Part shown: piece after piece, positions 1-50,753 of the stretch | How the letters are laid out: each line of letters starts with the position of its first letter | Position numbering within the stretch: position 1 is the first letter of the stretch | Made by a program: the position numbers and the translations under genes | Notes under the pieces: model-generated | The model's database searches: none | Seen by the model: the letters and a program-made list of their open reading frames with translations, nothing else | What the model was told of the DNA's origin: nothing | NCBI GenBank assembly: GCA_903876665.1 | Contig: CAIRAY010000147.1 | Location: forward strand, 1 to 64,000 | DNA from: an uncultured Fibrobacterota bacterium | GTDB taxonomy: Bacteria; Fibrobacterota; Fibrobacteria; Fibrobacterales; Fibrobacteraceae | Length of the DNA stretch: 64,000 nucleotides | Reading direction: 5' to 3'

Positions 1-58
1 AAAAGTCCCAAAAAAAGGAATACTGTTTTTATGGACAACTTCATTTGTGCTTGTCGCA

Positions 59-3000
59 TTATTTTTTCTCCCCAAGGTACATGCACCGAACAAAAGAGCG
101 GGTGACCCCATCTTCCCACCAGTACTCCAATATTATGTTTGCCTTTTGCTCCCTTAATATCCATTCCACGTTACCCACCCTCTTGAATGGCCACCATTCA
201 ATCGAAGGGATAGCTTCATTTTCTTCATAATCCACCTCTGAAATAGAACCGTCCACGGACATCCGCGCCTTCCAGCCTAAACCCAAAGCAATGCTCACAA
301 TATCATTGTGCAAGGACTCCCCTCGCAGGTTTCCAATATTTGGTTCTGGACTGGGTGGCAACACCCGGGCAAAAATTGTTTGTTCAGTGGAACGAAAGGT
401 TGAAACTTTATAGATATCAGAGTTCTGTACTTCACGAGCCCAAACTTGAGACGCATCACGGTAACCCCATTTTGGATTACCACCGAATACGTAATAGGCA
501 CCAGAATTGTTGATTGAACTTCCGACAAATGCCCTTACAACTACTATTTGCCCACTATCAGGACTTAACGAATCTTCAGCCTGCTTTAAAACATTGTGCA
601 CAATTGGCCAATAGACAATAGAACTAGCCCCCACCTCGGTCATTGCCGGAGCAATAATCTCCGCCGACACCCCATACCTCGCTACGGATACATCCAAATA
701 GTGAACCCCCTCCGGCACCCATTTCAGGTCATCACACATCCCATCCCAGTGAAGAATACTTGTTCCAAGAGTCTTGGCACCCAAGGCTTTGATGCACACA
801 ACCACATTGTCGAGATTGCGGATCTTCAGGGTCACCTCAGCGGTCATATTCAGGTCCAGGCTAACGCTGACCCGCTTCGTTGCATCGGCCAATGCCGCCG
901 GGTATTCCAGCGCTCCCGTAACAACCACATTGCTCACCGTGAGCGCAGCCAAAATGACATTCACCGTTTCCGCAGTCGTATTTCCAACAGCGTCGCTGGC
1001 GGTCTTGGAAATTGCAAAACTTCCTGCAGGCAGAGCTGGTGTTATTGTCTCGGAAAACGGAACGCCGTCAACGGTTCCCGAAACCGGAATGTCAATACTT
1101 CCAACGGGGAACACCTCTCCCGCAGTGGGCGAAGTGATCACGACCACCGGTGGCGTACGATCCACCACAAAGGTCTTGGTCGCTCGTCCCCAGCCACCAT
1201 CAATCGCCAGAACCTCGATTTCATGGGAACCATCCTGCAATGCGGAAATATCCAAGGACGCAGAAAAGGATGTTTGTGCCCCTGTTGGCGTCAACGTTTC
1301 CTTCAACTCGCCATCGATCAATATTTTTACCTGACTCGCCTTGGGCGATAACGAGCCCGCAACGGTCAGCAAATTTTCTTTGGTGACCGAGGCCGTTGGT
1401 GATGTTATGGTTATGGAAGGAATTGTTCCGGAATTGTAGCCGACCAGTCCACCTCCAGCCCCAAAATCCTTGGAGCCTATCTTGCCATACACCTTCACCA
1501 TTTTTTCCATCGCCGAATCCGGATACCAGAGCGCAGTATATCCGTATCCTGCCGCTAAATCCCTTGCGCCCCAAGCCTGAACGCTAGTTGCTGTCTTTAA
1601 TGGGTTGGCATCGCCAAGCGCTCCCGTGGAGTTGTCCCCATAGATGTCCACACGGTTGAACTGGTATAAATACTGTGTATTTTCCGGGTCGTCTGGGTCT
1701 TCAACAGTGTTCAGAAAGTGGTAACCGTCCGATAGCGGGTGCTGATATGGAGAAAGAAATCCGCCCTCAAACATGGTGGCAAAATGGCTGATCCCCGCCG
1801 ACATCAGGCTCAGTCTCGAAGCGCCGCTCTGTAGACCAGTCATGCCTGTTCCCCACCAGACGGTCCGAACCACAGTCTGTGCAGGTCTCAGCCGATGCGA
1901 GACGCCAAAATCCCGCCCGGAAGCAAGCAACCGCGAAACCGGCATTTCGGTTATTGACGAGGAAGGGTTTTCGTAGGTATTCATGAATCCTTGGAATGTT
2001 CGGCGCCCTATGGCATGGGTCAATTGGTCTGAACCATAGGTGCACCCCGTTCTTGCTGTGCCTGGTTTATAATCCCAAGACAAATCGGAGCACACCCCTT
2101 GGGGAATCAAAAGCTGGGCCCTGTCGTTTGCACCCCAGGTCCAAAGCCTCTGCAGGCTGTCAAGTCCAAGGGAATGGGCGCGTCCCGCTGCCACAGCAAA
2201 AAGTCGGACCGTATTTTCGCCCTCGGCGGGCATGGTGAGAAGCTCAGGCTGAGACCCATCGGCAACAAGCGGAGTCGACCCGCTCGCAAGACCAAGCTGC
2301 CCCTCGTCTCCACGACCCCAAACCCAGGTCCGGTTCGATTCATCGATGGCAATGTTGTGTGCAGTTCCGGCGACGATGTCCTTGATAATAATGCCCACAG
2401 GAAACACAACTTTAACCGGCACATCCGAGGAATCCCCAGCATTGGAATTCCCAAGCTGACCTTCGCGGTTGTCACCCCAGGCCATCACGGTACCATCCAC
2501 CATCAGGGCAAGCGAATGCCTTGCGCCAGCGGCCACCGAGCGCACGTTACCCACGACCCCCATTACCTGGATCAGGGAATCGGACCAGACGCGCCCCGGG
2601 TCGGGGAACCCCAAGCGTCCCTGTCCGTTGCTTCCAAAGGATAGAACTCGGGTATGAGTTGTTGAATTCTCCACCAATGAATCAAGGACCACCACATGGG
2701 AATCCCCTGCGGAAATGCTGCGTGGCATTATGGTTACTCCAACCATTGCTGGAGAGAACTTGGAAGTAACCACATGCACGGCGCCGTCATAGCTCTTGAT
2801 CTCCAGAGCCTGCCATTCCTGGGCCGTGGAGTCAAAGCGGAAGGCCTTGACCTGTTCCTTGGAATATCTTTTTGGTTGGTAGTCCGGCATGGGGAGGGCC
2901 ATCTCGATAGTGGATCCCGGAGCGATGTCGGCATGCACCTGGAAGTACCCACCCGAGCGCAGGAAGTCACGGCGGAGCAGTTCGGGCTTGCCGCTTTCAT

Positions 3001-4705
3001 TGCCCAGATATCGGATGGTGGGGACTTCGTTGTTCACCAGGGTTCCCGGAGCTACGGATACCGCAATTCGGGTTCGCGTTCCATAACCCGGGATTTGATC
3101 GAAGCGGTATTCAACATATTCAGGCTTAGTGATTCCCGAAAAATCCACGCGGTCAGGCACTCCCACCAGTGGCGCATCGTTTGCGTTGTGGGGATCGCTT
3201 CCGACCTGGCGCTCCACCGCATCTGGGATCCCGTCGCCATCGCTGTCGTTGGTCCATGGCCCCTGGCCATATACAATCAGGCCGTCGGAGGTCACCGTGA
3301 CCTTGGGATTGCCCGCTGTGTTGCCGGTTCCGGCCCAAGACCAGTCGTCGGTGAAATTCACATTGCCCCAGTCCTTGGAGGCGATGCGGACCTGCACCTC
3401 GCGCGTTGCGCCAATGGGCAAGAGACCTTCGCCCAGCGCTACCGTGAACTGCACCCGACGGTCCTTCTGTGTCGTCCTTGAAATGGTAGTACCAGGAACT
3501 TGGGACCAGTCGATCAGGCCGATCAACGGCTGTTCGCCAGCAAGGGTGTCCGCATGCCAGTTGAAGCGGACCCGGCGCAAAGGAACCTCGCCCGTATTGG
3601 TCACCAGGCAGGTGAGCCACAGGGTGTTGTCCGTCCTTTGGGTCACGGTGGTGTTGACCTTCGCTTCCTGTTTGGCCGTGGTAGGGAAAGGAAGGCGCGG
3701 GATTTCGGAAACCAGGTTCTGAGCGTGCCTGCGCACCGTCACGCCATTGTTGACGCCACCTGTCACCGTGGGCATAGCTATCCACGATGGGTCGTTAGTG
3801 CGGTTAATCGCGGTATAGTCCTTGACATGCATCCGCAGGTGCACCACCGCTGAATCGCCCAAATTCAGTGTCACTGGAATCCGCATCCATACCGTTCCGC
3901 TGAAGTCATCCCGGGCTTCTACGGTCCCTGTGACCCCGGCAAGGGAGGAGTGGTCGATCTCGGGTTCCAGCTCGTCCGAATGGTCGGCCCAGTTGAAGTG
4001 CCAGCCGATCTCCGGGGCATCAAGAGGAACTGTGCCTGCGTTCTTGACCGTCAGGGCCACGGCATACCAGTTGACGTTGCTTCCGATCACCGAAGCCGTC
4101 ACCACGGGCATGGGAACCAGGCCCAGCGAGGCGGAGGACAACATTTTGGCAGATGAGCTGGAAGTAAAAATGCCCGAAGATGAAGCCACGGATGAGGACG
4201 ATTGAGCCAAGGAGGGTGCGAGGCTTGAAGATTGTTGAGTCGTTTCCGTCCACTGGATGCGGTCGAAGGAGCATAGGCGGTTCCATTCCGCGGAATGCCC
4301 GTAGCCCACTCGCCCTGTGGCGTGGGTGGCATCATTGATTGTCGCCACAGAATCTCCATTAAGGAATACTTTAAATTCGTTGCCGTGCATGACGATGCGG
4401 AGGTTTACGTTGGACGCGAGCGGAACATCTTTTTTGCCCAGGGGCGAACAGCTGGCCATCCCATCGACGCAGAAAAAGACATGCGATTCCCATTGGTTTG
4501 CGGGTCGCACTCCGACGAAGTAGAAACTTGACTGATTGGTGTAGCGGAATACTGCGCCACCCCGGTGTCCATTCCAGATGTCGGCGACCAAGTCCATTTC
4601 AAGCGTACCGTCCGGTGCCGTGGCATCGGTGCGCAACAAGAATCCGTTCTGCCCGGAACCGTTGGCGGGCAAGGCCATTCCGCCAACTTCGCTCCAGGGG
4701 CGCAT
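59..4705 (-). CDS. Very large secreted multidomain surface protein: N-terminal LamG/concanavalin-like domain, two CBM/CARDB-like beta-sandwich domains, a TSP3-like DSDGDG calcium-binding motif, RCC1 (beta-propeller) repeats, bacterial Ig-like domains. The annotated ATG lacks a signal peptide. The true N-terminus probably lies upstream, reaching about 4845 through a homopolymer frameshift.
   Basis: Single 1548-aa ORF. RCC1 signatures are VMAWGDNREGQLG, VWGRGDEGQLG, TWGANDRAQL and HSLAL/HNIAI. It carries a DSDGDGIPDAVE motif and Ser-rich linkers. Reading upstream in the same frame gives KALIAFLFCAFLGAAPVHSA, a typical signal peptide, but without an in-frame ATG. Confidence 0.8.
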   Translation of the reverse strand: MRPWSEVGGMALPANGSGQNGFLLRTDATAPDGTLEMDLVADIWNGHRGGAVFRYTNQSSFYFVGVRPANQWESHVFFCVDGMASCSPLGKKDVPLASNVNLRIVMHGNEFKVFLNGDSVATINDATHATGRVGYGHSAEWNRLCSFDRIQWTETTQQSSSLAPSLAQSSSSVASSSGIFTSSSSAKMLSSASLGLVPMPVVTASVIGSNVNWYAVALTVKNAGTVPLDAPEIGWHFNWADHSDELEPEIDHSSLAGVTGTVEARDDFSGTVWMRIPVTLNLGDSAVVHLRMHVKDYTAINRTNDPSWIAMPTVTGGVNNGVTVRRHAQNLVSEIPRLPFPTTAKQEAKVNTTVTQRTDNTLWLTCLVTNTGEVPLRRVRFNWHADTLAGEQPLIGLIDWSQVPGTTISRTTQKDRRVQFTVALGEGLLPIGATREVQVRIASKDWGNVNFTDDWSWAGTGNTAGNPKVTVTSDGLIVYGQGPWTNDSDGDGIPDAVERQVGSDPHNANDAPLVGVPDRVDFSGITKPEYVEYRFDQIPGYGTRTRIAVSVAPGTLVNNEVPTIRYLGNESGKPELLRRDFLRSGGYFQVHADIAPGSTIEMALPMPDYQPKRYSKEQVKAFRFDSTAQEWQALEIKSYDGAVHVVTSKFSPAMVGVTIMPRSISAGDSHVVVLDSLVENSTTHTRVLSFGSNGQGRLGFPDPGRVWSDSLIQVMGVVGNVRSVAAGARHSLALMVDGTVMAWGDNREGQLGNSNAGDSSDVPVKVVFPVGIIIKDIVAGTAHNIAIDESNRTWVWGRGDEGQLGLASGSTPLVADGSQPELLTMPAEGENTVRLFAVAAGRAHSLGLDSLQRLWTWGANDRAQLLIPQGVCSDLSWDYKPGTARTGCTYGSDQLTHAIGRRTFQGFMNTYENPSSSITEMPVSRLLASGRDFGVSHRLRPAQTVVRTVWWGTGMTGLQSGASRLSLMSAGISHFATMFEGGFLSPYQHPLSDGYHFLNTVEDPDDPENTQYLYQFNRVDIYGDNSTGALGDANPLKTATSVQAWGARDLAAGYGYTALWYPDSAMEKMVKVYGKIGSKDFGAGGGLVGYNSGTIPSITITSPTASVTKENLLTVAGSLSPKASQVKILIDGELKETLTPTGAQTSFSASLDISALQDGSHEIEVLAIDGGWGRATKTFVVDRTPPVVVITSPTAGEVFPVGSIDIPVSGTVDGVPFSETITPALPAGSFAISKTASDAVGNTTAETVNVILAALTVSNVVVTGALEYPAALADATKRVSVSLDLNMTAEVTLKIRNLDNVVVCIKALGAKTLGTSILHWDGMCDDLKWVPEGVHYLDVSVARYGVSAEIIAPAMTEVGASSIVYWPIVHNVLKQAEDSLSPDSGQIVVVRAFVGSSINNSGAYYVFGGNPKWGYRDASQVWAREVQNSDIYKVSTFRSTEQTIFARVLPPSPEPNIGNLRGESLHNDIVSIALGLGWKARMSVDGSISEVDYEENEAIPSIEWWPFKRVGNVEWILREQKANIILEYWWEDGVTRSFVRCMYLGEKK

Positions 4706-4820
4706 GCCTGCGGTGGTGAATCCCGAGAGCGATCCATCGGAATGGTCGTCGGTGAATGATGCGGAATGTACGGGTGCCGCGCCTAGGAAAGCGCAGAATA
4801 AAAACGCAATTAGGGCTTTA

Positions 4821-4828
4821 GGGGGGGG
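4821..4828. repeat. Homopolymeric G8 tract (C8 on the coding strand of the giant surface-protein gene). It places the upstream ATG (about 4843-4845, minus strand) at +1 relative to the signal-peptide frame. It is a candidate slipped-strand phase-variation switch, or a homopolymer sequencing error.
   Basis: The minus strand reads atggcacataaattgct-CCCCCCCC-taaagccctaattgcg. With 8 C the ATG frame stops after 11 codons (MAHKLLPPLKP*). With 9 C it reads MAHKLLPPPKALIAFLFCAFLGAAPVHSASFTDD... in frame with the 1548-aa ORF. Confidence 0.6.
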
Positions 4829-4926
4829 AGCAATTTATGTGCCATAGGGACGCAAAGATAAAAAAACAACGTTCGAAATGGAGTAAAAAGGAACTAACCA
4901 TCCATTCTTTTATCCATGCGCAAGGA

Positions 4927-5625
4927 TTATTTCGTCAGAAACCAGATCGCCCCTGCGAACGCGAGAACCCCAACGGCCTTACGGGCCCAAACAATCCAGC
5001 GACCCATGCCCCGTACATGAAAAATGGGCAGGATCCAAGTAGATGCCATTCCGGCAAAAACGATCACCGAGCAATGTCCAAGGGCGTAGGCCAAAACCAG
5101 GCCTGTCGCCAATAAAGGCCTTGTTGCCACCGAATCGAAAACTAGCCCTAGCACCGGCATGATGAATGCGAAGGCACATGGCCCAAGAACCGTGCCAAAT
5201 AAGCCACCCAGCAATAATGCGGCTCCAAGACCCCTACCCTTGAAGCGTTCCTGGCTCGACAAGGTATACGCAGGAATATGGATTACATCTAAAAGAAGAA
5301 GACCGACCAGGGCAAATATCAGCGCCCCAAGCCAATTACTCCATGGCCCCACATCGCCAAAAATGCGGCCCAACATTCCCGTAATCAAACCGAGTACCAC
5401 CATACTCACCAGGATTCCAAAGGAAAATACGGCCGAAAGCACAAAAGCCCGGACCGGAGTGCCACCACTTTGTTTGGCTACAAACCCCATCACCAACGGC
5501 ACGCTGGCCAGGTGACAAGGAGAGAGGATTACGCTCGCGATACCCCACAATAGGGCACCGGACACCGCCACCCATGGGCTTGCCCACATCATTTCCGAAA
5601 GGCGGGTCAGAATATCCAGGATCAC
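4927..5625 (-). CDS. ccdA: Cytochrome c biogenesis / disulfide-reductant transmembrane protein (CcdA/DsbD transmembrane-domain family)
   Basis: 232-aa polytopic membrane protein with the SPCHLASVP motif and a second conserved Cys region typical of CcdA. Its stop overlaps the start of the upstream Trx-like gene. Confidence 0.8.
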   Translation of the reverse strand: MILDILTRLSEMMWASPWVAVSGALLWGIASVILSPCHLASVPLVMGFVAKQSGGTPVRAFVLSAVFSFGILVSMVVLGLITGMLGRIFGDVGPWSNWLGALIFALVGLLLLDVIHIPAYTLSSQERFKGRGLGAALLLGGLFGTVLGPCAFAFIMPVLGLVFDSVATRPLLATGLVLAYALGHCSVIVFAGMASTWILPIFHVRGMGRWIVWARKAVGVLAFAGAIWFLTK

Positions 5626-5969
5626 CGGCGGACTCGCTTGGATGCTAGGATTTTTTCCAGCTCACTTTGCGGAAAAAATCCTTCGTGTCTAAAGAATTCC
5701 TTGCCTGTGGAATCCAAAAATACTTGTGTGGGAATGGAGCGAATCTTAAATTTTTGGGCCTCGGGTTTTCCGGCCGGGGTCCAGACATCGTGGAACACAA
5801 TTTTTAGATCTTGCCGGTATTTAATTTCCAATGAATCCATGATTTTTTTCATGGCCCGGCAGGGAATGCAATTCACCGAACCGAGCTCCACAAAAGTCAC
5901 TTTGGGCTCAGTGGCAAGGGCTTTTGTGGCTAAGCATAATAGAAGCAAAAAGATATGAATCAATTTCAT
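5622..5969 (-). CDS. Periplasmic thioredoxin-like thiol-disulfide oxidoreductase (TlpA/ResA-like), the likely partner of CcdA
   Basis: 115 aa. Signal peptide MKLIHIFLLLLCLATKALA, CIPC (CxxC) active-site motif, and a 4-bp overlap with ccdA. Confidence 0.7.
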   Translation of the reverse strand: MKLIHIFLLLLCLATKALATEPKVTFVELGSVNCIPCRAMKKIMDSLEIKYRQDLKIVFHDVWTPAGKPEAQKFKIRSIPTQVFLDSTGKEFFRHEGFFPQSELEKILASKRVRR

Positions 5970-6025
5970 TTTCCCATCCTATCATCGTCAATGGTATTGC
6001 GACATGCAAAGAATTTATGGATTTT

Positions 6026-6099
6026 GATGCCCGGCTTTCCTGTCATGCTGGCTTTCCTGTCATGCTGGCTTTCCTGTCATGCCCGGCACGGGCATGACA
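6026..6099. repeat. Intergenic repeat locus A. It holds three tandem 17-bp units (gctttcctgtcatgcYg) ending in a perfect palindrome tgtcatgcccg-gca-cgggcatgaca at 6075-6099 (subtype I of the ATGCCCG-N3-CGGGCAT family).
   Basis: Read directly from the sequence. It lies between the Trx-like gene (ends 5969) and the redox-active disulfide protein 2 gene (ends 6143), both on the minus strand. Confidence 0.85.
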
Positions 6100-6142
6100 A
6101 ATTCATTCGCACATTTAGCGACATTTTTAGTAGGTATATCCA

Positions 6143-6376
6143 TTAAATCAGGTATTCCTTCAATGCTTCCGCCTTTAGCACTTTCCCAGAAAACATGACT
6201 TTTCCATCCACCACCAGGGCAGGCGTGGTCATCACACCAAAGACCATAATTTGTTTGTAATCAGTAACCTTTTCCAGCTGGATTTCAACGCCCAAAGCAT
6301 CCGCAGCTTTTTGGACTTCCTCCGCAAGGATGATGCATTTGCTACAGCCGCCGCCGAGAACTTGGATTTTTTTCAT
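6143..6376 (-). CDS. Small thioredoxin-fold protein, redox-active disulfide protein 2 family (TM0996/MTH895-like)
   Basis: 77 aa with a GGGCSKC motif near the N-terminus. This family is classically encoded next to ArsR and a PF03773 permease. Confidence 0.75.
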   Translation of the reverse strand: MKKIQVLGGGCSKCIILAEEVQKAADALGVEIQLEKVTDYKQIMVFGVMTTPALVVDGKVMFSGKVLKAEALKEYLI

Positions 6377-6397
6377 GGTGAGCTCCTTTTGAATCTT

Positions 6398-7435
6398 TTA
6401 CAACAACGCATTAAACAAATACCCAACCAGCATGATGCCACAAGCCACGGTGCCAAAGAATATCCCCAGCAGTTTGGGCTTCAACACTTTGCGCAATAAA
6501 ATGGCCTCGGGAAGGGACAAGGCAATCACCGCCATCATAAAGGCAAGGGACGTTCCTAATGCGGCCCCTTTTTCCAGCAAGGCCGAGATGATGGGCAAAA
6601 TCCCAGCGGCGTTGGAATACATGGGAACACCCAGTAGAACAGCAAGGGGCACAGACCACCAGGAACCCGCTCCGAGGATTTTCACAAAAAAATCCTGAGG
6701 CACATAGCCATGAATTCCTGCGCCCACAGCGATGCCCAGAATGACCCACATCCAAACTTTTCCGACCACTTCTTTGACCGCATCACGACCCGCCAGAATC
6801 CTTTCGCCCCAGCTCATTTTTGCATCTTCACCGGTTGTGCCGCCCCGAATTTCCCATACCCAGTCTTCGACCAGATGATCCAGCTTGACGCGGCCCAATA
6901 CATAGCCCGCGAGCATGGCCACCGCAAGGCCGGTGCCCATATAGAGAGCTGCCACCTTCCATCCAAACATCCCAAAAAACAGGACTAATGCCACTTCGTT
7001 GACCATGGGGGCGCTGACCAGAAAGGAAAAGGTTGCGCCCAGAGGTACGCCTGCGGAAAGAAAGCCAATAAACAAAGGCACGGCAGAGCAAGAGCAGAAT
7101 GGTGTCACCGTACCTAGCAATGCCGCCATGGCATTTCCGGTAAAGGCTCCGCGCCCCTGAAGCATTTTCCGGGTCCGTTCGGGAGAGAAAAATGTGCGAA
7201 TGATCCCGACGCCAAAGACCACGGAAACCAGCAGCATCAACACCTTGGGGGTGTCATAAAAGAAAAATGCCAGGGATTCAAAGGCCCGGCCCCCTGCAGG
7301 GAGAAAAGAAAATTGACCGGACAAGGCCTGCACGGTCAAATGCGACAAGGCTTCCAAATTCCAATAAAGAGAGACCCAGGCCATTATGCCTGCGAGCCCC
7401 AGAGACCAATGAATAATGAGCTTCCCCTTCATCAT
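6398..7435 (-). CDS. Permease of the PF03773/DUF318 family (ArsP-like putative organoarsenical/thiol efflux permease)
   Basis: 345-aa polytopic membrane protein containing TPFCSCSAVPLF, the vicinal-Cys TPFcSCS motif characteristic of ArsP-type permeases. It overlaps arsR by 4 bp. Confidence 0.7.
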   Translation of the reverse strand: MMKGKLIIHWSLGLAGIMAWVSLYWNLEALSHLTVQALSGQFSFLPAGGRAFESLAFFFYDTPKVLMLLVSVVFGVGIIRTFFSPERTRKMLQGRGAFTGNAMAALLGTVTPFCSCSAVPLFIGFLSAGVPLGATFSFLVSAPMVNEVALVLFFGMFGWKVAALYMGTGLAVAMLAGYVLGRVKLDHLVEDWVWEIRGGTTGEDAKMSWGERILAGRDAVKEVVGKVWMWVILGIAVGAGIHGYVPQDFFVKILGAGSWWSVPLAVLLGVPMYSNAAGILPIISALLEKGAALGTSLAFMMAVIALSLPEAILLRKVLKPKLLGIFFGTVACGIMLVGYLFNALL

Positions 7436-7788
7436 GCCCCTTGGTCAATGCAATTGAAAAACCCCAAAATGCAGGGCATGGATAATTTGTAAAATACTTT
7501 GAGCCCGCGCTTGTCGTCCTCAATGAGGCCGGCATGGCGGAGTACCGCCAAATGCCTACTGACGGTGGACATGTCGGTGCCCACCACGGGGGCAATTTCG
7601 CAAACACAAGTTTCGCCTTGGGTCAAGAGTTCCAAAATTCGAATGCGCGAAGGATGCCCCATGGCCTTGAAGATGCTGGCACGACGCTTGATCACCGCCA
7701 GGGAGGTTGGCATTTTTGCCGGTTGCACAATGGCACATTCTGTGGCCGACTTGGCTGCATTTTGTTTCATATTTGCAAATATACGCAA
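7432..7788 (-). CDS. arsR: ArsR/SmtB-family metalloregulatory transcriptional repressor. The track start is TTG at 7788; a more likely start is the ATG at 7768-7770, giving MKQNAAKS...
   Basis: HTH region IFKAMGHPSRIRILELL, a metal-site ETCVCEIAPVVG (CVC) motif and the downstream DNA-recognition helix region. Confidence 0.85.
   Translation of the reverse strand: MRIFANMKQNAAKSATECAIVQPAKMPTSLAVIKRRASIFKAMGHPSRIRILELLTQGETCVCEIAPVVGTDMSTVSRHLAVLRHAGLIEDDKRGLKVFYKLSMPCILGFFNCIDQGA
7769..7782. promoter_or_regulatory. Perfect 14-bp palindrome ATATTTGCAAATAT abutting or overlapping the arsR start codon. It is a candidate ArsR operator for autoregulation.
   Basis: The palindrome is read directly from the sequence (catATTTGCAAATATacgcaaatac), with an adjacent partial repeat gcaaata. 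ArsR/SmtB repressors typically bind AT-rich inverted repeats that overlap their own promoters. Confidence 0.4.
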
Positions 7789-8756: not shown

Positions 8757-9623
8757 ATGAAAACTTCAGCGAAATTTTTAACCCGTTTTGGCGTGTTGTG
8801 TGTAATGTTGATCCTGGCCTGCGACGGAGCCGGGCTACGCGATAACCCCACAGACTCCGGAGCAGTCGGCTACCCAGAAAGCTCGGCCCAGGCATCATCG
8901 GCCCAGGTATCTTCAGCCCAGTCCTCGTCAGCACAGGGGTCATCTTCGCCCGTTTCCTCTTCCCTGAATTCATCGTCCCAGGCTTCTTCGTCAACCCCTT
9001 CATCGTCCCAGGTTTCCTCATCCACATCCTCGTCCTCGTCGCAAGCGTTGCCATCCTCTTCGAGCCTAGTTCTTTCTTCCTCCTCCAGCGCATCCTCCTG
9101 CAGGGATTCCGACCCTTCGGGTTCCGTGACGGACTGCCGAGATAGCATTGAGTATAAAACAACCACCATCGGCGGAAAAGTTTGGATGGGTGAAAACTTG
9201 CAATTCGCTCCCTCAACTGGTTCAACCTGGTGTTACAAAGATTCCATCGCCAATTGCGGGAAATTTGGTCGTTTATACGATTATGCCACCGCAGAAACCG
9301 CGTGCATGGAAGGTTGGCACTTGCCAACTAATGTCGAGTGGAGCCAATTGGCTAGTGATGCCGGTGCCAATCTCAAATCAACACAATGGAACACCAACTC
9401 CATTCCAAGTTCTGATTCCTATAAGTTTTCCGCAATAGCGGCACCCTTCTTGGACTCACTTCCTCAATTCCAAAATTTGGATAATGCTTTTTGGTGGGCA
9501 GCCACCCCATCCGCTACTGGAGCAAATAGGGATATTCGATGGATGGCCGGTGGTTCTGCCTCTCTTGGCTCAAGTTCCCGACTGATGTCTTATGGTCTTT
9601 CGGTGCGGTGTATTCAGGATTAA
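8757..9623 (+). CDS. Lipoprotein with a Ser-rich linker and a C-terminal Fibrobacter succinogenes major paralogous domain (TIGR02145-like)
   Basis: Lipobox LILAC, SSAQ-type Ser-rich low-complexity linker, and a domain with WMGENLQF...WCY...C...RLYDYATAE...VRCIQD ending at the C-terminus. Confidence 0.8.
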   Translation: MKTSAKFLTRFGVLCVMLILACDGAGLRDNPTDSGAVGYPESSAQASSAQVSSAQSSSAQGSSSPVSSSLNSSSQASSSTPSSSQVSSSTSSSSSQALPSSSSLVLSSSSSASSCRDSDPSGSVTDCRDSIEYKTTTIGGKVWMGENLQFAPSTGSTWCYKDSIANCGKFGRLYDYATAETACMEGWHLPTNVEWSQLASDAGANLKSTQWNTNSIPSSDSYKFSAIAAPFLDSLPQFQNLDNAFWWAATPSATGANRDIRWMAGGSASLGSSSRLMSYGLSVRCIQD

Positions 9624-24708: not shown

Positions 24709-26937
24709 TTACCCCTTGACAGCACCACCGGTCAGGCCGGAAACAATGTGGCGTTGCATCAAAAAGAAAAGCACCATAACCGGAAGCGTGGCAACCGTGG
24801 CTGCCGCCATCAACAAATCGAAGCGATTGCCAAATTGCCCCACATACAAACGGATACCAACCGGAATGGTTGCCGTGGAGGTATCCGTGCAAAGAACCCA
24901 GGCGAACATCAGTTCGTCCCAAGCAAGAAGAAACACGTAAATGCCAGTCGCCACAATTCCGGGCAGGGCCGCAGGAATGGTAATGCGTATAAACGCCCCA
25001 AAAGGAGAACACCCATCAATCATGGCGGCCTCCTCCAGCTCACGTGGGATGCTCGCAAAGAATCCACGCAGGATCCAGGTAGACATGGGAATAAAAAAGG
25101 CTGAATACACGAGGATGATTCCATGCCAAGTATTCACCATTTCAATCATAACATACTGCTGAATGGTGGTAAACAAGATAAAAATAGGAATCAAATACAA
25201 AATTCCTGGAACCATTTGCGTCGCAAGGATCGTCATGCTTAGCAACCGTTTTCCCGGAAACTCAAAGCGCACAATGGCGTAGCTTGCCAAAGCAGCCACC
25301 AGCACGGAAATAAACATGACGCTCAGGCAAATGACCAGGGAATTGCGCAGGAAACGACCAAAGGGAATGGTCTTCCACAGGTCCTCATAATTTCGCCAAT
25401 GTAGCTGGAAACGCCCTTCGGGAACCTGCTGATGCCAATAGGTCCGATGACTGGAACGATCAATGCTCGAGGCGAATCCAAACAACCCCCCCAGCCGAAG
25501 AACTCCAGCATCGCTCTTGATGGTATGGACCACCGCATCGGTGGCCTCATGAGTAGAATTCGATTCAAAAACCTTGGAATAAAGGAGAATTGGAATCTCA
25601 TTTTCGGAGGCATCTTCCGGGGCATTGACCCAGTCCATTTTATCGACGACTAGCACACCTTCGGAGGTCCCAATGAAGGCGCTGACCGAATCCACTTCCA
25701 GAGCGGTTATGTCGGAGGTAATGGAGCGAAACATAGGCATGGCCAAGGATTTTCCTTCTCCACGCCGGAAATTGAAAGCCATCACCTCTTGTCCATAACC
25801 CAGGAGAATATTTGCCGAGTCCAACCTCGCCACAGTGACATCGCGCCCATCCAAATACTTAAGTCCGTATTCCCCAAAAAGAAAAGTTGCGGAAACTTTG
25901 TGTGCAACGACATCGACCAAATTAAGGCCCGCATCGGTAATCGCCAAAACTTCCCGGTCGCTGATGCGAACCAGGTGCTGAATGGCGGTGGAAGATAGCC
26001 CATGTTGGGCTGTGATCCAACGGACGGAGCCGGTTTTGGGATCGAGAACTCCGACCCCCGGAAAGTCATCCCACCAGAGCGCAAAACAGATTTGCCCGTT
26101 CCCGCAAGGAGTGATGCTGGTCCCGTGGCCTGAACCGGGAATTCTGTTGACCCAGACATCGGTCCATGGCACCTGGAGGAAGCGAGAAATATTTCCAGGA
26201 AATCTCTCTGCCAAGCACCAACGGAAAAGCTCCCGGTCCTTTTGAGGAGTGCGTTCCTGCTTGTAAAGCCAGGGAATCACGGGATTGAACCAAGAAGGAA
26301 CTTTTTTCCATTCCTCAAGAGTTTTGGCGAGCATGACTTGATCAAGCAAAATCCGGTTCAGGGAATCGAGAAGGGAAGCGTCCCTGGAAAAGCGGATTCC
26401 TGTCACCTCGGAAAGGCTTGCACCTTCGTTGGCTTCCACCAGGGGGTCCCGGTTAAACTGATCCGCAGCCGCACCATACTCTCGCGCAAAAATTTCGCCC
26501 GGTAATTCCATAAAGGGAGTAAAATCGGTCGCTTCAAAACGCTCCTGAATTTCCCCCCAATCCCAATGCTTGGTTTCTTGCCAGGCGGCAAGATCCACCA
26601 ACGAAATCCCCCCATCGGCACTGGCCACCCAAAGGTCCTGACCGTTGCGAGAATATGAGGTGGACTGATATCCTAAATTCAGGTAGCGGGGTTCGTCCTT
26701 AGGCCGTTCCAGACTATACAGATAAAGTTCACCATTCACTGTACCCGCAAGCATTCCAAGACCAGGAACCGAGTCTGCTAGGAATACATCGTTCCTCTGA
26801 AGGTCCGGCAGAGTCTTTCCTTGCAAGATTTCATTATTGCCCATCAAAGAACACCAAACCATCCAAAGAATGGGAAATGCATTCAAGGCAACAAAGATCC
26901 ATGTAAGCGGAGTCCAAAGGAATCTGGATTTATCCAT
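24709..26937 (-). CDS. Carbohydrate ABC transporter permease (MalG/UgpE-like) carrying a periplasmic domain of about 450 aa inserted after TM1
   Basis: The C-terminal 270 aa have the EAAMIDGCSPF (EAA) motif and the MalG TM pattern. The N-terminus has one TM helix (TWIFVALNAFPILWMVWCSL) followed by a long soluble beta-rich domain. Confidence 0.8.
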   Translation of the reverse strand: MDKSRFLWTPLTWIFVALNAFPILWMVWCSLMGNNEILQGKTLPDLQRNDVFLADSVPGLGMLAGTVNGELYLYSLERPKDEPRYLNLGYQSTSYSRNGQDLWVASADGGISLVDLAAWQETKHWDWGEIQERFEATDFTPFMELPGEIFAREYGAAADQFNRDPLVEANEGASLSEVTGIRFSRDASLLDSLNRILLDQVMLAKTLEEWKKVPSWFNPVIPWLYKQERTPQKDRELFRWCLAERFPGNISRFLQVPWTDVWVNRIPGSGHGTSITPCGNGQICFALWWDDFPGVGVLDPKTGSVRWITAQHGLSSTAIQHLVRISDREVLAITDAGLNLVDVVAHKVSATFLFGEYGLKYLDGRDVTVARLDSANILLGYGQEVMAFNFRRGEGKSLAMPMFRSITSDITALEVDSVSAFIGTSEGVLVVDKMDWVNAPEDASENEIPILLYSKVFESNSTHEATDAVVHTIKSDAGVLRLGGLFGFASSIDRSSHRTYWHQQVPEGRFQLHWRNYEDLWKTIPFGRFLRNSLVICLSVMFISVLVAALASYAIVRFEFPGKRLLSMTILATQMVPGILYLIPIFILFTTIQQYVMIEMVNTWHGIILVYSAFFIPMSTWILRGFFASIPRELEEAAMIDGCSPFGAFIRITIPAALPGIVATGIYVFLLAWDELMFAWVLCTDTSTATIPVGIRLYVGQFGNRFDLLMAAATVATLPVMVLFFLMQRHIVSGLTGGAVKG

Positions 26938-46532: not shown

Positions 46533-47372
46533 ATGGATTCAACGGCCATCAACATTTTCGGTTATTCGGATTTCCGCGCGTACCTCCGGGATTACTACTC
46601 GAAGCGCCACAGCTTGGATCGTTCCTTCTCCCATCGCTTCCTCGCTCAAAAACTTGGAGACAAGTCTCCCTCCTTCCTGCAAAAGCTACTCGATGATGAG
46701 CGTCGCCTTAGTCCCCATCAAATTGAAATACTCATTCATTTGTGCCGACTCGAAGAACACGAAGCCAAGTATTTTCGGGTGCTTTATCTCTACTCATCGG
46801 CACCAGGAAGGACCGAGCGGGAATTATATCTAGAACAACTCATATCCCTGAACCACACGCCAAGACGCCAATTGGAGCTAGATCTTTTCGAATTCTATCG
46901 TCACTGGTACCATCCCGCCTTGCGATCCATACTCAGCGTTGTGGATGTTCAAGATGATTTTCGCATGGTCACCAAAATGATCCGGCCTCGCATTTCGGTC
47001 AATCAGGTCAAGGATTCCATTGCCTTGATGGCCCGCTTGGAAATCATTCAAAAAGATGCGAATGGTTACTGGAAGCCCGCGAGCGAGGCTCTATTCGTCA
47101 AAGACAATTTCAACCAGGCCATTATTCAGAATTTCCGCCAGCAATGCCTGGATCTCGCCTCGCAGGCTCTGGTTCAGGGCCATGGCAAAGAAGATTATCA
47201 TTTTTCCACCGGAACCATGAGCGTCAGCTCGGACGCCCATCGCCGAATTTTTGACAAGCTCGAAAAATTCCGCGCCGAAATACGGTCCATTGTGCGGAAA
47301 GATTCCCTTCCGCCCACCAAAGTCATTCAATTACAAACTCAGATTTTCCCATTAATGGAGAACGACAAATGA
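46533..47372 (+). CDS. Fibrobacter paralogous-family protein (TIGR02147-like), a putative HTH regulator, paralog 1
   Basis: Homologous to the 53339-54184 product: FxDYRAY(L/F)R(D/E)xY...LDR(S/R)FSHRFL(A/S)(Q/E)KLGDKSPSF conserved. Start at MDSTAINIF. Confidence 0.8.
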   Translation: MDSTAINIFGYSDFRAYLRDYYSKRHSLDRSFSHRFLAQKLGDKSPSFLQKLLDDERRLSPHQIEILIHLCRLEEHEAKYFRVLYLYSSAPGRTERELYLEQLISLNHTPRRQLELDLFEFYRHWYHPALRSILSVVDVQDDFRMVTKMIRPRISVNQVKDSIALMARLEIIQKDANGYWKPASEALFVKDNFNQAIIQNFRQQCLDLASQALVQGHGKEDYHFSTGTMSVSSDAHRRIFDKLEKFRAEIRSIVRKDSLPPTKVIQLQTQIFPLMENDK

Positions 47373-49483
47373 ATTCAATTTCCGCCAAACCCAAATTGGA
47401 ACGACTGGGGATTTTCGCCCTGATCGTAGGTATTCTCCTTGCGCAAAGTTGCAGCCTCCATGACCCCGAGACGACCAGCGGGATCATCGATGAAACCGAG
47501 ACATTTATTACTGGCACCGTGGTGGATCCGGACGGGAAACCTGTCGCGGGAGCTCGGGTGATGCTTCACGGGGACAGCCTGGGGAGTACTTCGGCAAGCC
47601 TCGCGAAGGTAAGCGAACGGAATTCCGAAGGAACGTTGGAAACCCTGTCGGACAAAAACGGCGATTACCGCTTCGCGGGCCATTTCCGTAGCAAGGCCTA
47701 TCTGGAAGTGGACCTGAACGATTCTCTCGGTTTTCTCGACAGCATTGATTTTTCCACCGGGAAAGCTTTTGAGCGGGAGAACGATGTTCTAAAAGGAAAG
47801 GGTAGCCTGACGGTTCAAACCCTCGATTTGGATAGCGGGGCTGTCATTTGGATTCCTCAAATCGGGACTTCGCTTTTCGTTTCTGGCGATGGTAAAAGCC
47901 TAATCATCATGGCTCCTCCTGGAAATCTGACCATAATCATCATTAATGGCAATGATCGCCAACCCCTTCCCCTGCCTGTGGTGATCGAAGAAAAAGAATC
48001 CACCACGGTTGATCCCGCCAAGGAACTTGAACAAACCTCCAGCGCCAACCAAATGACCGATCTGCGTGATGGCAGAAAATACCGTACCGTTGCCATTGGA
48101 AATCAAATTTGGATGGCTGAAAACCTGAATTACGGCATCATGGATACGAGCAAGTCCAAACTCCAGTCCGGGAACCAAAAATACTGCTACCAGAACGATT
48201 CCACAAATTGCAATAACGAGGGTGGCCTTTATCAATGGCACCAAGCCATGAACCTTCCCGGCTCCTGTTCCACGACAGGCTGTAGCGCACAAATTCAGGT
48301 GCCAAGCCACCAAGGCATTTGCCCAGACGGCTGGCAAATGCCCTCTAAGGCGGACTGGGATTTTCTCGGCACAACTTTGGGAGGAGCCTCAACGGCTGGT
48401 TTCTCCATGAAACTCAACACCACAGGGGACGCCTCCTTCGATGCCACCCTCTATAACGATGGAAATAGCTCGGGCTTTTCAGCCTTCCCTGCTGGAATCC
48501 GCTATTTTAACGGAACCTTCGCCTATCACGCAGGCGATGTCCGCTCCAGCGCAACCATCTGGGAAGCCACCGAAGAATCCTCGACCAATTACATGAATGC
48601 TTGGCGACGTGTGGTGAACAACGAAGGCACCGAGCTTGCTCGCCTCTATAATCATGCTAAACAAGATGCATTTTCGGTGCGCTGCCTGAAAACCTTAGTC
48701 GGAACGTCTTCTCAGGCCACGTCGTCTTCGGTCACTCCATCTTCATCCTCGGTGATTCCACCTTCATCTTCGGTCACCACCCCATCCTCGTCCTCACAGC
48801 TTGTCGCATCCTCCTCCTCAACCTTGACAGCCAATACCATGAGGGATTCTCGCGACAATCAAATTTATGCGACGGTTAAAATTGGCACTCAGGTCTGGAT
48901 GGCTGAAAATCTGAATTATGGAACCATGGACACGAGCTCAAGCACGTTACAAAGTGGAGACCAGAAGTCATGTTACCAGAATCTCGAGGCAAATTGCGAT
49001 ACCGAAGGTGGATTATACCAATGGCATCAGGCCATGAACCTTCCCGGCTCTTGCTCCACCACCGGCTGCAGCGCACAAATCAATTTGCCCAACCATCAGG
49101 GCCTCTGCCCAACGGGCTGGCACATGCCCTCCAAAACCGATTGGGATTTGTTGGGAACAACCTTGGGAGGAGCGGCAACGGCGGGGTTCTCGATGAAGCT
49201 CAACAACACCGGCGACGCCTCTTACGATGCCGCGATTTACAATGATGGCAATTCTTCCGGGTTTTCTGCCTTTCCTGCGGGAATCCGCTACTTCAACGGA
49301 ACTTTCGCTTATCACGGTGGCGAGGTTCGTTCGAGCGCAACCATCTGGGAAGCCACCGAAGAATCCTCAACCTATTATATGAATGCTTGGCGACGTGTGG
49401 TGAACAACGAAGGCACCGAGCTTGCTCGCCTGTATAATCACGCCAAACGAGACGCATTCTCGGTTCGGTGCGTCCAGGACTAG
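47369..49483 (+). CDS. Lipoprotein with an N-terminal CarboxypepD_reg-like domain, a Ser-rich linker and two tandem Fibrobacter succinogenes major paralogous domains (TIGR02145-like)
   Basis: Lipobox ILLAQSC, an IDETETFITGTVVDPDGKPVAGARV segment, and two copies of ...IWMAENLNYG...GGLYQWHQAMNLPGSCSTTGCSAQI...AFSVRC(L/V)xx. It overlaps the upstream gene by 4 bp. Confidence 0.8.
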   Translation: MNSISAKPKLERLGIFALIVGILLAQSCSLHDPETTSGIIDETETFITGTVVDPDGKPVAGARVMLHGDSLGSTSASLAKVSERNSEGTLETLSDKNGDYRFAGHFRSKAYLEVDLNDSLGFLDSIDFSTGKAFERENDVLKGKGSLTVQTLDLDSGAVIWIPQIGTSLFVSGDGKSLIIMAPPGNLTIIIINGNDRQPLPLPVVIEEKESTTVDPAKELEQTSSANQMTDLRDGRKYRTVAIGNQIWMAENLNYGIMDTSKSKLQSGNQKYCYQNDSTNCNNEGGLYQWHQAMNLPGSCSTTGCSAQIQVPSHQGICPDGWQMPSKADWDFLGTTLGGASTAGFSMKLNTTGDASFDATLYNDGNSSGFSAFPAGIRYFNGTFAYHAGDVRSSATIWEATEESSTNYMNAWRRVVNNEGTELARLYNHAKQDAFSVRCLKTLVGTSSQATSSSVTPSSSSVIPPSSSVTTPSSSSQLVASSSSTLTANTMRDSRDNQIYATVKIGTQVWMAENLNYGTMDTSSSTLQSGDQKSCYQNLEANCDTEGGLYQWHQAMNLPGSCSTTGCSAQINLPNHQGLCPTGWHMPSKTDWDLLGTTLGGAATAGFSMKLNNTGDASYDAAIYNDGNSSGFSAFPAGIRYFNGTFAYHGGEVRSSATIWEATEESSTYYMNAWRRVVNNEGTELARLYNHAKRDAFSVRCVQD

Positions 49484-50644: not shown

Positions 50645-50721
50645 ACCCTACCAGGCTTTCCTAAAAAGCCTGGTTCCCAAGGCCATTCTCCTTGGTTAAA
50701 CTTTACTTTTGATTTTTTTTT

Positions 50722-50753
50722 GCCCCGGAGTCATCCGGGGCTTTCTATTTTTG
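50722..50753 (+). terminator. Rho-independent terminator-like hairpin gccccgga-gtca-tccggggc followed by tttctattttt. It lies immediately upstream of the yfhO-like ATG and downstream of the small ORF.
   Basis: 8-bp GC-rich stem, 4-nt loop, T-rich tail. It is preceded by two more hairpins (50651-50673, 9-bp stem; 50677-50695, 6-bp stem). Confidence 0.4.

Follow-up and report, generated by a model that had tools for sequence, protein, structure and literature searches.

In this study we analyzed a 64-kb stretch of DNA (64,000 nucleotides, hereafter the window) and propose that a giant gene on its minus strand (59-4845) is a slipped-strand contingency switch, operated by a poly-C tract and caught in the OFF state, a reading to which we assign a probability of about 0.62. 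The gene would encode a secreted or surface protein of ~1595 aa, the expression of which is gated by the tract. With nine C's (or six) a ribosome starting at the ATG would pass LPPP, enter the signal peptide and complete the entire protein. At eight C's, the length seen in the window, translation from the ATG would stop after 11 codons and the gene would be OFF. Slipped-strand mispairing during replication would add or remove a C and thereby flip the state both heritably and reversibly, the relevant step being from 8 to 9. Slipped-strand homopolymer switching is in itself a textbook mechanism and already known; judging from the features described below, the present tract may switch at a useful rate inside a population.

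Frame layout and the true start of the giant gene

All features of the gene are located on the minus strand. The ATG start codon (4843-4845) is followed by a conserved leader of 14 nt, GCACATAAATTGCT (4829-4842), which encodes A H K L L as codons 2-6, and then by the C8 homopolymer (4821-4828; the plus strand has G8), which we propose to be the slipped-strand switch at its OFF length. The tract lies in codons 6-9, after the start codon but ahead of the hydrophobic core of the signal peptide. At C8 the ATG frame ends at a TAA (4810-4812) after the 11-codon peptide MAHKLLPPLKP. The frame of the giant ORF (59-4705) is open upstream to another TAA (4837-4835) and reads IAPPPKALIAFLFCAFLGAAPVHSASFTDD..., and between this TAA and Met 4705 it holds no ATG, GTG or TTG. 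The codon directly after the TAA in this frame is ATT (4834-4832), which might serve as a weak, non-canonical start. Toggling by one unit joins the two frames, as C9 (one C gained), or C6 (two lost), gives a single ORF of 1595 or 1594 codons, respectively, starting MAHKLLPPPKALIAF..., and the restored protein has the N-terminal peptide ASFTDDHSDGSL... No other frameshift or stop was found in the 1595 codons of the window gene.

The signal peptide is encoded in the giant ORF frame at 4763-4828 (PPPKALIAFLFCAFLGAAPVHS, with predicted cleavage before ASF), and at C8 this stretch is left without a start codon. Its hydrophobic core, LIAFLFCAFLGA, has a mean Kyte-Doolittle value of 2.65 over 12 aa, and the n/h/c layout of a signal peptide can be recognized in the restored N-terminus. 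The N-terminus called at Met 4705 has a value of 0.50 and no hydrophobic core, which agrees with the statement of an earlier sequence-only reading that the annotated ORF lacks a signal peptide. The same reading had placed the ATG, the C8 tract, the stop after 11 codons and the nine-C fusion at these positions and in these frames, and had noticed the signal peptide without start codon upstream in the giant ORF frame; all of this was reproduced on the sequence.

Comparison with related loci indicates that the ATG and the predicted signal peptide are the genuine, ancestral N-terminus of the protein, because a relative without any C tract, L006 (protein P0003, 53% identical), starts at the homologous ATG in frame (MAHFLTTPRALAAF...), as does L005 (protein P0002, 55% identical; MAHKLLPPPIAK...), which carries C9. 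The signal peptide of the window can also be aligned with those of P0002 and P0003. An SD-like GGAG is found ahead of the ATG in L001, L002 and L005. The ORF finder lets the gene body (59-4705, 1548 aa) begin at Met 4705, a residue that is not conserved, since the relatives have V, G or E at this position, and this start is a gene-calling artefact. The deposited annotation is a 1548-aa 'hypothetical protein' from the internal Met; by the same comparison it is wrong, and the true product, with its predicted signal peptide, begins 47 codons upstream.

From the N-terminus the protein is composed of a LamG-like domain, a Ser-rich linker, two repeated beta-domains, a TSP3 repeat, an RCC1 propeller, a Big_7 domain, a FlgD-Ig-like domain and a C-terminal region. 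The core of the RCC1-like beta-propeller (2111-2719, residues ~710-912 of the restored protein) was matched by Pfam RCC1 (1.6e-25), RCC1_2 (1.1e-23) and WD40_RLD (2.2e-37), and the bacterial TSP3 calcium-binding repeat (3182-3247, PF18884) scored above its cut-off (1.2e-06). RCC1 repeats, Big_7 and TSP3_bac were supported by Pfam, whereas the LamG-like (3keto-disac_hyd) and the Ig-type (FlgD_ig) matches stayed below the family cut-offs. The domains of the restored protein are extracytoplasmic in type, and the product (~1595 aa) may be secreted or placed at the cell surface.

A second gene (1-59) directly follows, and its ATG (59-57) shares a nucleotide with the TAA of the giant gene (61-59) in the sequence TAATG. 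The encoded sequence is MRQAQMKLSIKTVFLFLGL..., and 19 codons are visible before this second gene runs off the end of the window. In L005 and L006 a gene in the same position and with the same overlap carries DUF6531 and RHS repeats, i.e. the giant gene of these relatives is the first in an operon that includes an Rhs-type gene. Since the downstream gene overlaps the stop and is Rhs-type in relatives, the OFF state would probably lower its expression too, as translational coupling would be lost and polarity would act on this gene.

Rarity and retention of the C run

The C tract is not a chance feature. The C8 is the only G/C run of at least 8 nt in the 64 kb, as compared to 9.9 ± 4.1 expected from dinucleotide-preserving shuffles, every one of which had at least one such run. 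For G/C runs of at least 7 nt, three overlapping matches were seen in the window vs. 32 expected, and in seven related loci (~52 kb) the only runs of this length were the leader tracts. The avoidance is visible also at the codon level, as CCC-CCN was used at 4 of the 37 other Pro-Pro sites in the window, where 15 were expected.

The tract next to the leader ATGGCAYAYAAATTGCT is C8 in the window (OFF), C8 in L002 (OFF) and C9 in L005 (ON). L002 and L005 share 74% protein identity and are saturated at synonymous sites (pS 0.70, dN 0.20, dN/dS ~0.1), and pS for the window vs. L005 was 0.77. Still, the leader is near-identical in L002 and L005 while the synonymous sites elsewhere in the gene are saturated. 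As the leader is common to lineages with such divergence, the C run has been kept across deep divergence with its length varying (8, 8, 9), a comparison that concerns three informative lineages with a tract (window, L002 and L005) and is made between lineages, not between strains of the same species. In all three, CTC CCC CCC CCT has been kept despite pS of 0.70-0.77, and the probability of this from codon usage is 0.029 per lineage. The uninterrupted run appears to be maintained by selection, because it is unbroken in spite of codon usage, of saturated synonymous divergence and of CCC-CCN avoidance nearby. The substitution pattern likewise indicates that the gene body is under purifying selection. 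Apart from the tract both OFF alleles are intact, over 1595 codons in the window gene and over at least 305 codons in L002. In L001 the tract is decayed to C4TC2, an interrupted 7-nt remnant, and the gene has a second frameshift near 6680 and is truncated.

A comparison of orthologues had been suggested along with the sequence-only reading. The differing tract lengths (8, 8, 9) favour the switch, and the tractless orthologue L006 starts at the ATG. Hence, the proposal of a homopolymeric ON/OFF switch in the OFF state gains support from the orthologues (C8/C8/C9, and the start of tractless L006). Further relatives were scarce in our searches. A homologous-protein search with a 390-aa N-terminal query gave P0001 alone among the matches listed, with Ser-rich words crowding the candidates, and searches with an alignment query and with the P0002 N-terminus gave no matches. 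Two scans of genome contigs found no relative, a viral contig scan for the leader had no match, and neither did exact-product look-ups of the 1548-aa window protein and of P0151.

Alternative explanations for the C8 allele

Homopolymers are a classic site of indel errors in assemblies, and the sequence-only reading had itself raised this alternative: the real tract would be C9 and the gene simply intact. Two further assemblies of the same organism, L003 (an ENA scaffold) and L007 (the Logan assembly of run ERR4221447), both have C8, so that all three assemblies give this length. However, both are 100% identical to the window, L003 over 2951 nt, and may come from the same sample, hence giving no independent test of tract length, and for this reason we downgraded them as independent confirmation of C8. 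An error is nevertheless quite improbable, as C8 was found at the homologous site in an unrelated project (L002) while L005 assembles as C9, and as homopolymers of 7-8 nt elsewhere in the window (C7 at 25486-25492, T8 and A8) leave their ORFs unbroken. If C8 is real, it could also reflect inactivation at a mutational hot spot with no adaptive switch, so that C9 would just encode LPPP in a dispensable accessory gene and the C8 alleles would be ordinary loss-of-function frameshifts toward pseudogenes, recurrent on account of the mutability of the run. OFF alleles are found in two of the three tract-bearing lineages, a pattern that recurrent inactivation would also give, and the decay of L001 (interrupted remnant, second frameshift, truncation) and the great rarity of the family in public data point in the same direction. 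We consider this explanation unlikely, though, since neutral decay would break the run, which has stayed unbroken through saturated synonymous divergence and local CCC-CCN avoidance, and since the OFF alleles have kept even the unused signal-peptide codons intact, with dN/dS ~0.1.

The C8 allele could alternatively be functional by programmed recoding, with either the ribosome slipping by -1 on C_CCC_CCC or RNA polymerase inserting an extra C. Such recoding, maybe tuned by EF-P at the PPP, would keep the giant protein and the coupled Rhs-type gene at a low, regulated level, and expression would be constitutively low-level or regulated. C_CCC_CCC (4828-4822) formally fits X_XXY_YYZ in the zero frame, a -1 slip on it yields exactly MAHKLLPPPKAL..., the nucleotide sequence of the leader is conserved, and C8 occurs with the same frame offset in two lineages with saturated synonymous divergence. 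We find this improbable all the same, as the layout that needs a frameshift varies (L005, with C9, and L006, with no tract, are in frame) and as no unusually stable structure was predicted: the 106-nt leader folds with z = +0.54 and +0.25 vs. shuffles, and the 61 nt that follow the run with z = -0.33 and +0.28, the sequences there being unalignable and without conserved structure. Known bacterial slippage and -1 sites are A/U-rich runs, and we know of no all-C heptamer or recoding site established in bacteria as efficient. The present tract resembles the sites of programmed -1 frameshifting or transcriptional slippage in dnaX and IS elements in that a short slippery run joins two frames, and in GeneTack-type surveys homopolymers of at least 8 nt are realignment sites (PMC3711429). 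Such sites are, however, invariant among homologues, mostly A/T and equipped with stimulatory elements, whereas the length of the window tract varies among homologues and no stimulatory element was found. Finally, the C8 alleles might be translated from the in-frame ATT, giving M-APPPKALIAF... with a working signal peptide, in which case C8 would be no real OFF state. AUU starts do exist, e.g. in infC, and in both C8 alleles the ATT directly follows the TAA in frame, 11 nt away from the ATG and inside the same initiation region. Its in-frame position is, on the other hand, an automatic result of coding K-L in the ATG frame, L005 and L006 use the ATG in frame, and AUU initiation is inefficient and would compete with a stronger AUG 11 nt upstream, so that we regard initiation at the ATT as very improbable.

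Some further candidates were rejected. The leader has neither an inverted-repeat partner nor a second copy in the window, which speaks against an invertible-DNA switch. A TAnnTTTG-like box, TATCTTTG, which might hint at a leaderless mRNA, is situated 7 nt upstream of the ATG, but its position is not conserved among relatives; a sigma-70 promoter scan of 4600-5100 gave no match. The missing Shine-Dalgarno sequence was dismissed as an argument against the ATG, as such a sequence, even loosely defined, precedes only about one third of the ORFs of the window. A T9 run (50713-50721) was discarded as a second switch because it belongs to a terminator hairpin.

Comparison with known systems

To our knowledge, homopolymer contingency loci come almost exclusively from host-adapted pathogens (Neisseria, Campylobacter, Haemophilus and Helicobacter), and in the literature that could be searched no homopolymer switch has been described for Fibrobacter or Fibrobacteres. 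If confirmed, slipped-strand switching of the giant gene would mean that a fibre-degrading, Fibrobacter-like lineage and its metagenome-only relatives share the bet-hedging device of pathogens, and it would indicate population heterogeneity in cell-surface or contact-dependent functions.

In the pilC genes of Neisseria the tract is located in the part that encodes the signal peptide. As proposed for the giant gene, pilC1 and pilC2 encode a large surface-associated protein and have a homopolymeric G/C tract near their 5' end, one base gained or lost decides between full-length and truncated product, and phase-variable alleles of some lineages have tractless counterparts in relatives (PMC5953494). 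The proteins are, however, non-homologous, the pilC tracts are longer (9-20), and the switching proposed here would take place in a Fibrobacter-like fibre degrader rather than a mucosal pathogen.

Tracts of 8-9 are at the short end of proven switches. A phasome screen of Neisseria used G runs of at least 9 as threshold (PMC5953494), and for the polyG/C tracts of C. jejuni a modal length of nine and a high switching rate of G8, mostly by insertion, have been found (PMC3401435). The polyG/C genes of C. jejuni (cj1139, G8; cj0031, G9) are similar to the present gene in tract type and length range (PMC3401435). They are alike also in having intragenic tracts that turn expression ON or OFF, as proposed for the giant gene, in a genome where G/C runs are rare elsewhere; the difference is that C. 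jejuni has tens of such loci vs. the one seen in this 64 kb. C. jejuni lacks MutS/MutL mismatch repair.

In the opa genes of Neisseria the CTTCT repeats are located in the region coding for the leader peptide. The opa genes differ from the giant gene in being a multi-copy family and in using pentamer repeats instead of a homopolymer, but in both systems a repeat separates the start codon from the mature protein (at the surface in opa, and presumably so here), and the number of repeats sets the downstream frame.

Reading frames at the start of the giant gene

The giant gene lies on the minus strand and is listed as a long ORF of 1548 aa (59..4705) starting from an ATG, a call deposited as 'hypothetical protein' on four contigs (NCBI, JGI, ENA). 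Upstream of it the minus strand reads ...TCCCT ATG GCA CAT AAA TTG CTC CCC CCC CTA AAG CCC TAA..., with the ATG at 4845-4843 and a run of eight C's (C8) at 4828-4821. Translation from this ATG yields MAHKLLPPLKP before a stop at 4812-4810. The long-ORF frame is open 5' of Met 4705 up to a TAA at 4837-4835, and encodes IAPPPKALIAFLFCAFLGAAPVHSASFTDDHSDGSLSGFTTAGMRPW... with no ATG, GTG or TTG between these two points. The sequence-only reading of a start codon, a C8 run and a signal-peptide-like stretch devoid of its own start was thus reproduced in all parts, as was its claim that one added C joins the ATG to the giant protein: insertion of one C or deletion of two fuses both frames into a single ORF of 1595 or 1594 codons, otherwise uninterrupted. 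Once restored, the protein begins with a basic n-region, a core of 12 residues whose mean hydropathy is 2.65, and a cleavage-type motif, V-H-S/A; a protein started at Met 4705 lacks a hydrophobic core at its N-terminus (0.50). RCC1 repeats, Big_7 and TSP3_bac scored above the Pfam cut-offs, and the LamG-like match (3keto-disac_hyd) and FlgD_ig fell below them.

With the tract at its ON length, codons 7-9 read Pro-Pro-Pro (residues 7-9 of the restored protein, 4828-4820). PPP is an EF-P-dependent ribosome-stalling motif, and ON expression may therefore itself need EF-P.

The C8 tract is the only G/C run of at least 8 in the 64-kb window, where 9.9 ± 4.1 were expected from 100 dinucleotide-preserving shuffles (0/100 had fewer than one), and G/C homopolymers of at least 7 are about ten-fold rarer than in the shuffles. 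Of the Pro codons in the window's coding regions, 40% are CCC; at the 37 Pro-Pro pairs CCC-CCN occurs 4 times (15 expected) and CCC-CCC twice (6 expected). The genome shuns C runs, and the window's sole long one falls exactly between start codon and signal peptide.

The leader in relatives and retention of the run

Two scans of species-representative genomes gave no relative of the giant gene, a word-indexed protein search gave a single metagenomic homologue (P0001, at locus L001) and a metagenome scan gave locus L002. When 1.84 billion representatives were searched exhaustively with HMMER, 241 relatives were returned, most of which have only the LamG-like domain in common and begin with an ordinary Met and signal peptide; the giant-gene family is very rare. 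Two relatives are close and full-length, P0002 (locus L005, 1451 aa, 55% identical) and P0003 (L006, 1503 aa, 53% identical).

Five leaders were aligned. L005 begins in frame with ATGGCACACAAATTGCT-C9-TATTGCT (MAHKLLPPPIAK...), and L006, also in frame and without a long run, with ATG GCG CAT TTT TTG ACC ACT CCC CGG GCG CTC (MAHFLTTPRALAAF...). The L002 leader, ATGGCATATAAATTGCT-C8-TATTGCT, is offset in frame just as in the window; translation from its ATG ends after 17 codons (MAYKLLPPLLLDSLRSI), and its main frame, 3' of a stop codon, reads IAPPPIARLASVYIVLSASFTFA... In L001 the leader has decayed to ATGGCGTGTAACTTTCT-CCCCTCC, a broken 7-nt run whose frame is shifted by the other offset, and this homologue (5407-7723) has a second frameshift near 6680 and is truncated before the RCC1 region. 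A GIY-YIG-domain gene lies 3' of it, and a candidate tRNA-like sequence just upstream (L001 5175-5262).

Since L005 and L006 begin in frame at the homologous ATG, the ATG at 4845 is the ancestral start, and since relatives carry V, G or E at the position of Met 4705, that Met is an artefact of gene start calling; the mis-annotated start is here corrected to 4845. The tract-length polymorphism looked for among orthologous loci was found, with C8 in the window, C8 in L002 and C9 in L005. The tract is thus common to at least three diverged lineages, and OFF and ON alleles are both found in nature.

Comparison of frame-corrected L002 with L005 gave a protein identity of 74%, pS = 0.70 (saturated), dN = 0.20 and dN/dS ~0.1, and the window and L005 gave 47% and pS = 0.77; the gene body is thus under purifying selection, with synonymous sites fully turned over. 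L-P-P-P is nevertheless written CTC CCC CCC CCT in 3/3 lineages (window, L002, L005), for which codon usage predicts a chance of 0.029 per lineage, leaving out CCC-CCN avoidance. Across seven related loci (~52 kb) G/C runs of at least 7 are confined to the leader tracts. Uninterrupted retention despite saturated synonymous sites would be expected if the run itself were selected, but not of a neutral LPPP motif.

Alternative explanations for the C8 allele

We consider it unlikely that the tract is a hot spot of inactivation without adaptive switching. Programmed recoding is quite improbable: a -1 ribosomal slip on C_CCC_CCC would give exactly the C9 product, but no stable structure relative to shuffles was found 3' of the run (106-nt leader, z = +0.54, +0.25; 61 nt downstream, z = -0.33, +0.28), nor a conserved one, the flanks being unalignable, and the frameshift-requiring layout is not invariant, as L005 and L006 need no frameshift. 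The same lack of invariance speaks against transcriptional slippage, which typically uses A/T runs (PMC3711429).

Sequencing or assembly error, the alternative left by the sequence-only reading, we judge very unlikely, because C8 recurs in an ENA metagenome scaffold (L003), a Logan assembly (L007, run ERR4221447) and L002 from an unrelated project, because L005 assembles C9, and because the window's other homopolymers (C7, T8, A8) sit within intact, Pfam-supported ORFs. L003 and L007 exclude an assembler quirk; they may share one population, or even the same reads, with the window and are not independent biological replicates, since L003 is 100% identical to it over 2951 nt. One further record has the window's 222-nt spacing from the upstream gene end to the called Met. 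Least probable is that the in-frame ATT at 4834-4832 starts translation in C8 alleles; leaky initiation there could occur, but the ATT falls in frame simply because the ATG frame encodes Lys-Leu at that point. A DNA-inversion switch is not indicated, as neither an inverted repeat nor a second leader copy was found.

Gene neighbourhood and known phase-variable systems

The same strand carries, upstream of the giant gene, thioredoxin-like genes and an ORF of 232 aa that has no Pfam match and resembles a membrane protein; then comes an 81-nt gap. The 174-nt gap between two thioredoxin-like genes, equal in length in L003, holds three head-to-tail 17-nt copies of GGCTTTCCTGTCATGCT (6033-6083), the last 94% identical. 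Downstream, the TAA of the giant gene (61-59) overlaps the ATG of the next gene (59-57) as TAATG, and that gene opens with MRQAQMKLSIKTVFLFLGL..., leaving the window after 19 signal-peptide-like codons (1-61, minus strand). Its putative Rhs-type identity is read from L005 (where the overlap is ATGA) and L006, whose overlapping genes encode >1142 aa and >2089 aa with DUF6531 and RHS repeats (L005 4665-7668; L006 7509-10512). From this we infer that the switch may gate an operon of giant putative surface protein and Rhs-type gene, polar when OFF.

Elsewhere, the Fibrobacter succinogenes major paralogous domain (Fib_succ_major) occurs in two plus-strand genes (8757-9623, 47369-49483), in favour of a Fibrobacter-like source, and such a gene also adjoins the giant gene in L006 (2033-2884). 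At 50713-50753 a T9 run, a hairpin (GCCCCGG-AGTCAT-CCGGGGC) and a T-rich tail resemble a bidirectional terminator. An ORF of 847 aa is listed from TTG 50720; it has no Pfam match and more likely starts at ATG 50760 (MKMKMNILLAVGF...).

Taken together, the tract lengths of 8, 8 and 9 in homologues and the retention of the run support the proposed phase-variable switch, and we put the probability that the tract is a slipped-strand ON/OFF switch caught OFF at about 0.6. Slipped-strand mispairing at the C8/C9 tract would toggle the giant gene between the two states. Four defining features of a contingency locus were looked for and found: repeat, frame toggle, tract-length polymorphism among homologues and run retention; a fifth, surface exposure of the product, may apply, and the decisive one would be reversible switching within a clone. 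Full-text literature searches turned up no account of SSR phase variation in Fibrobacter; such switches are well known as a kind and apparently undescribed so far in its phylum. The architecture would work like that of known poly-G/C contingency genes. In Neisseria, the reading frame of pilC contains tracts of 9-20 (PMC5953494), as compared to C8-C9 here; in Campylobacter jejuni, tracts have a modal length of nine, and one of G8 switches at high frequency, chiefly by insertion (PMC3401435).
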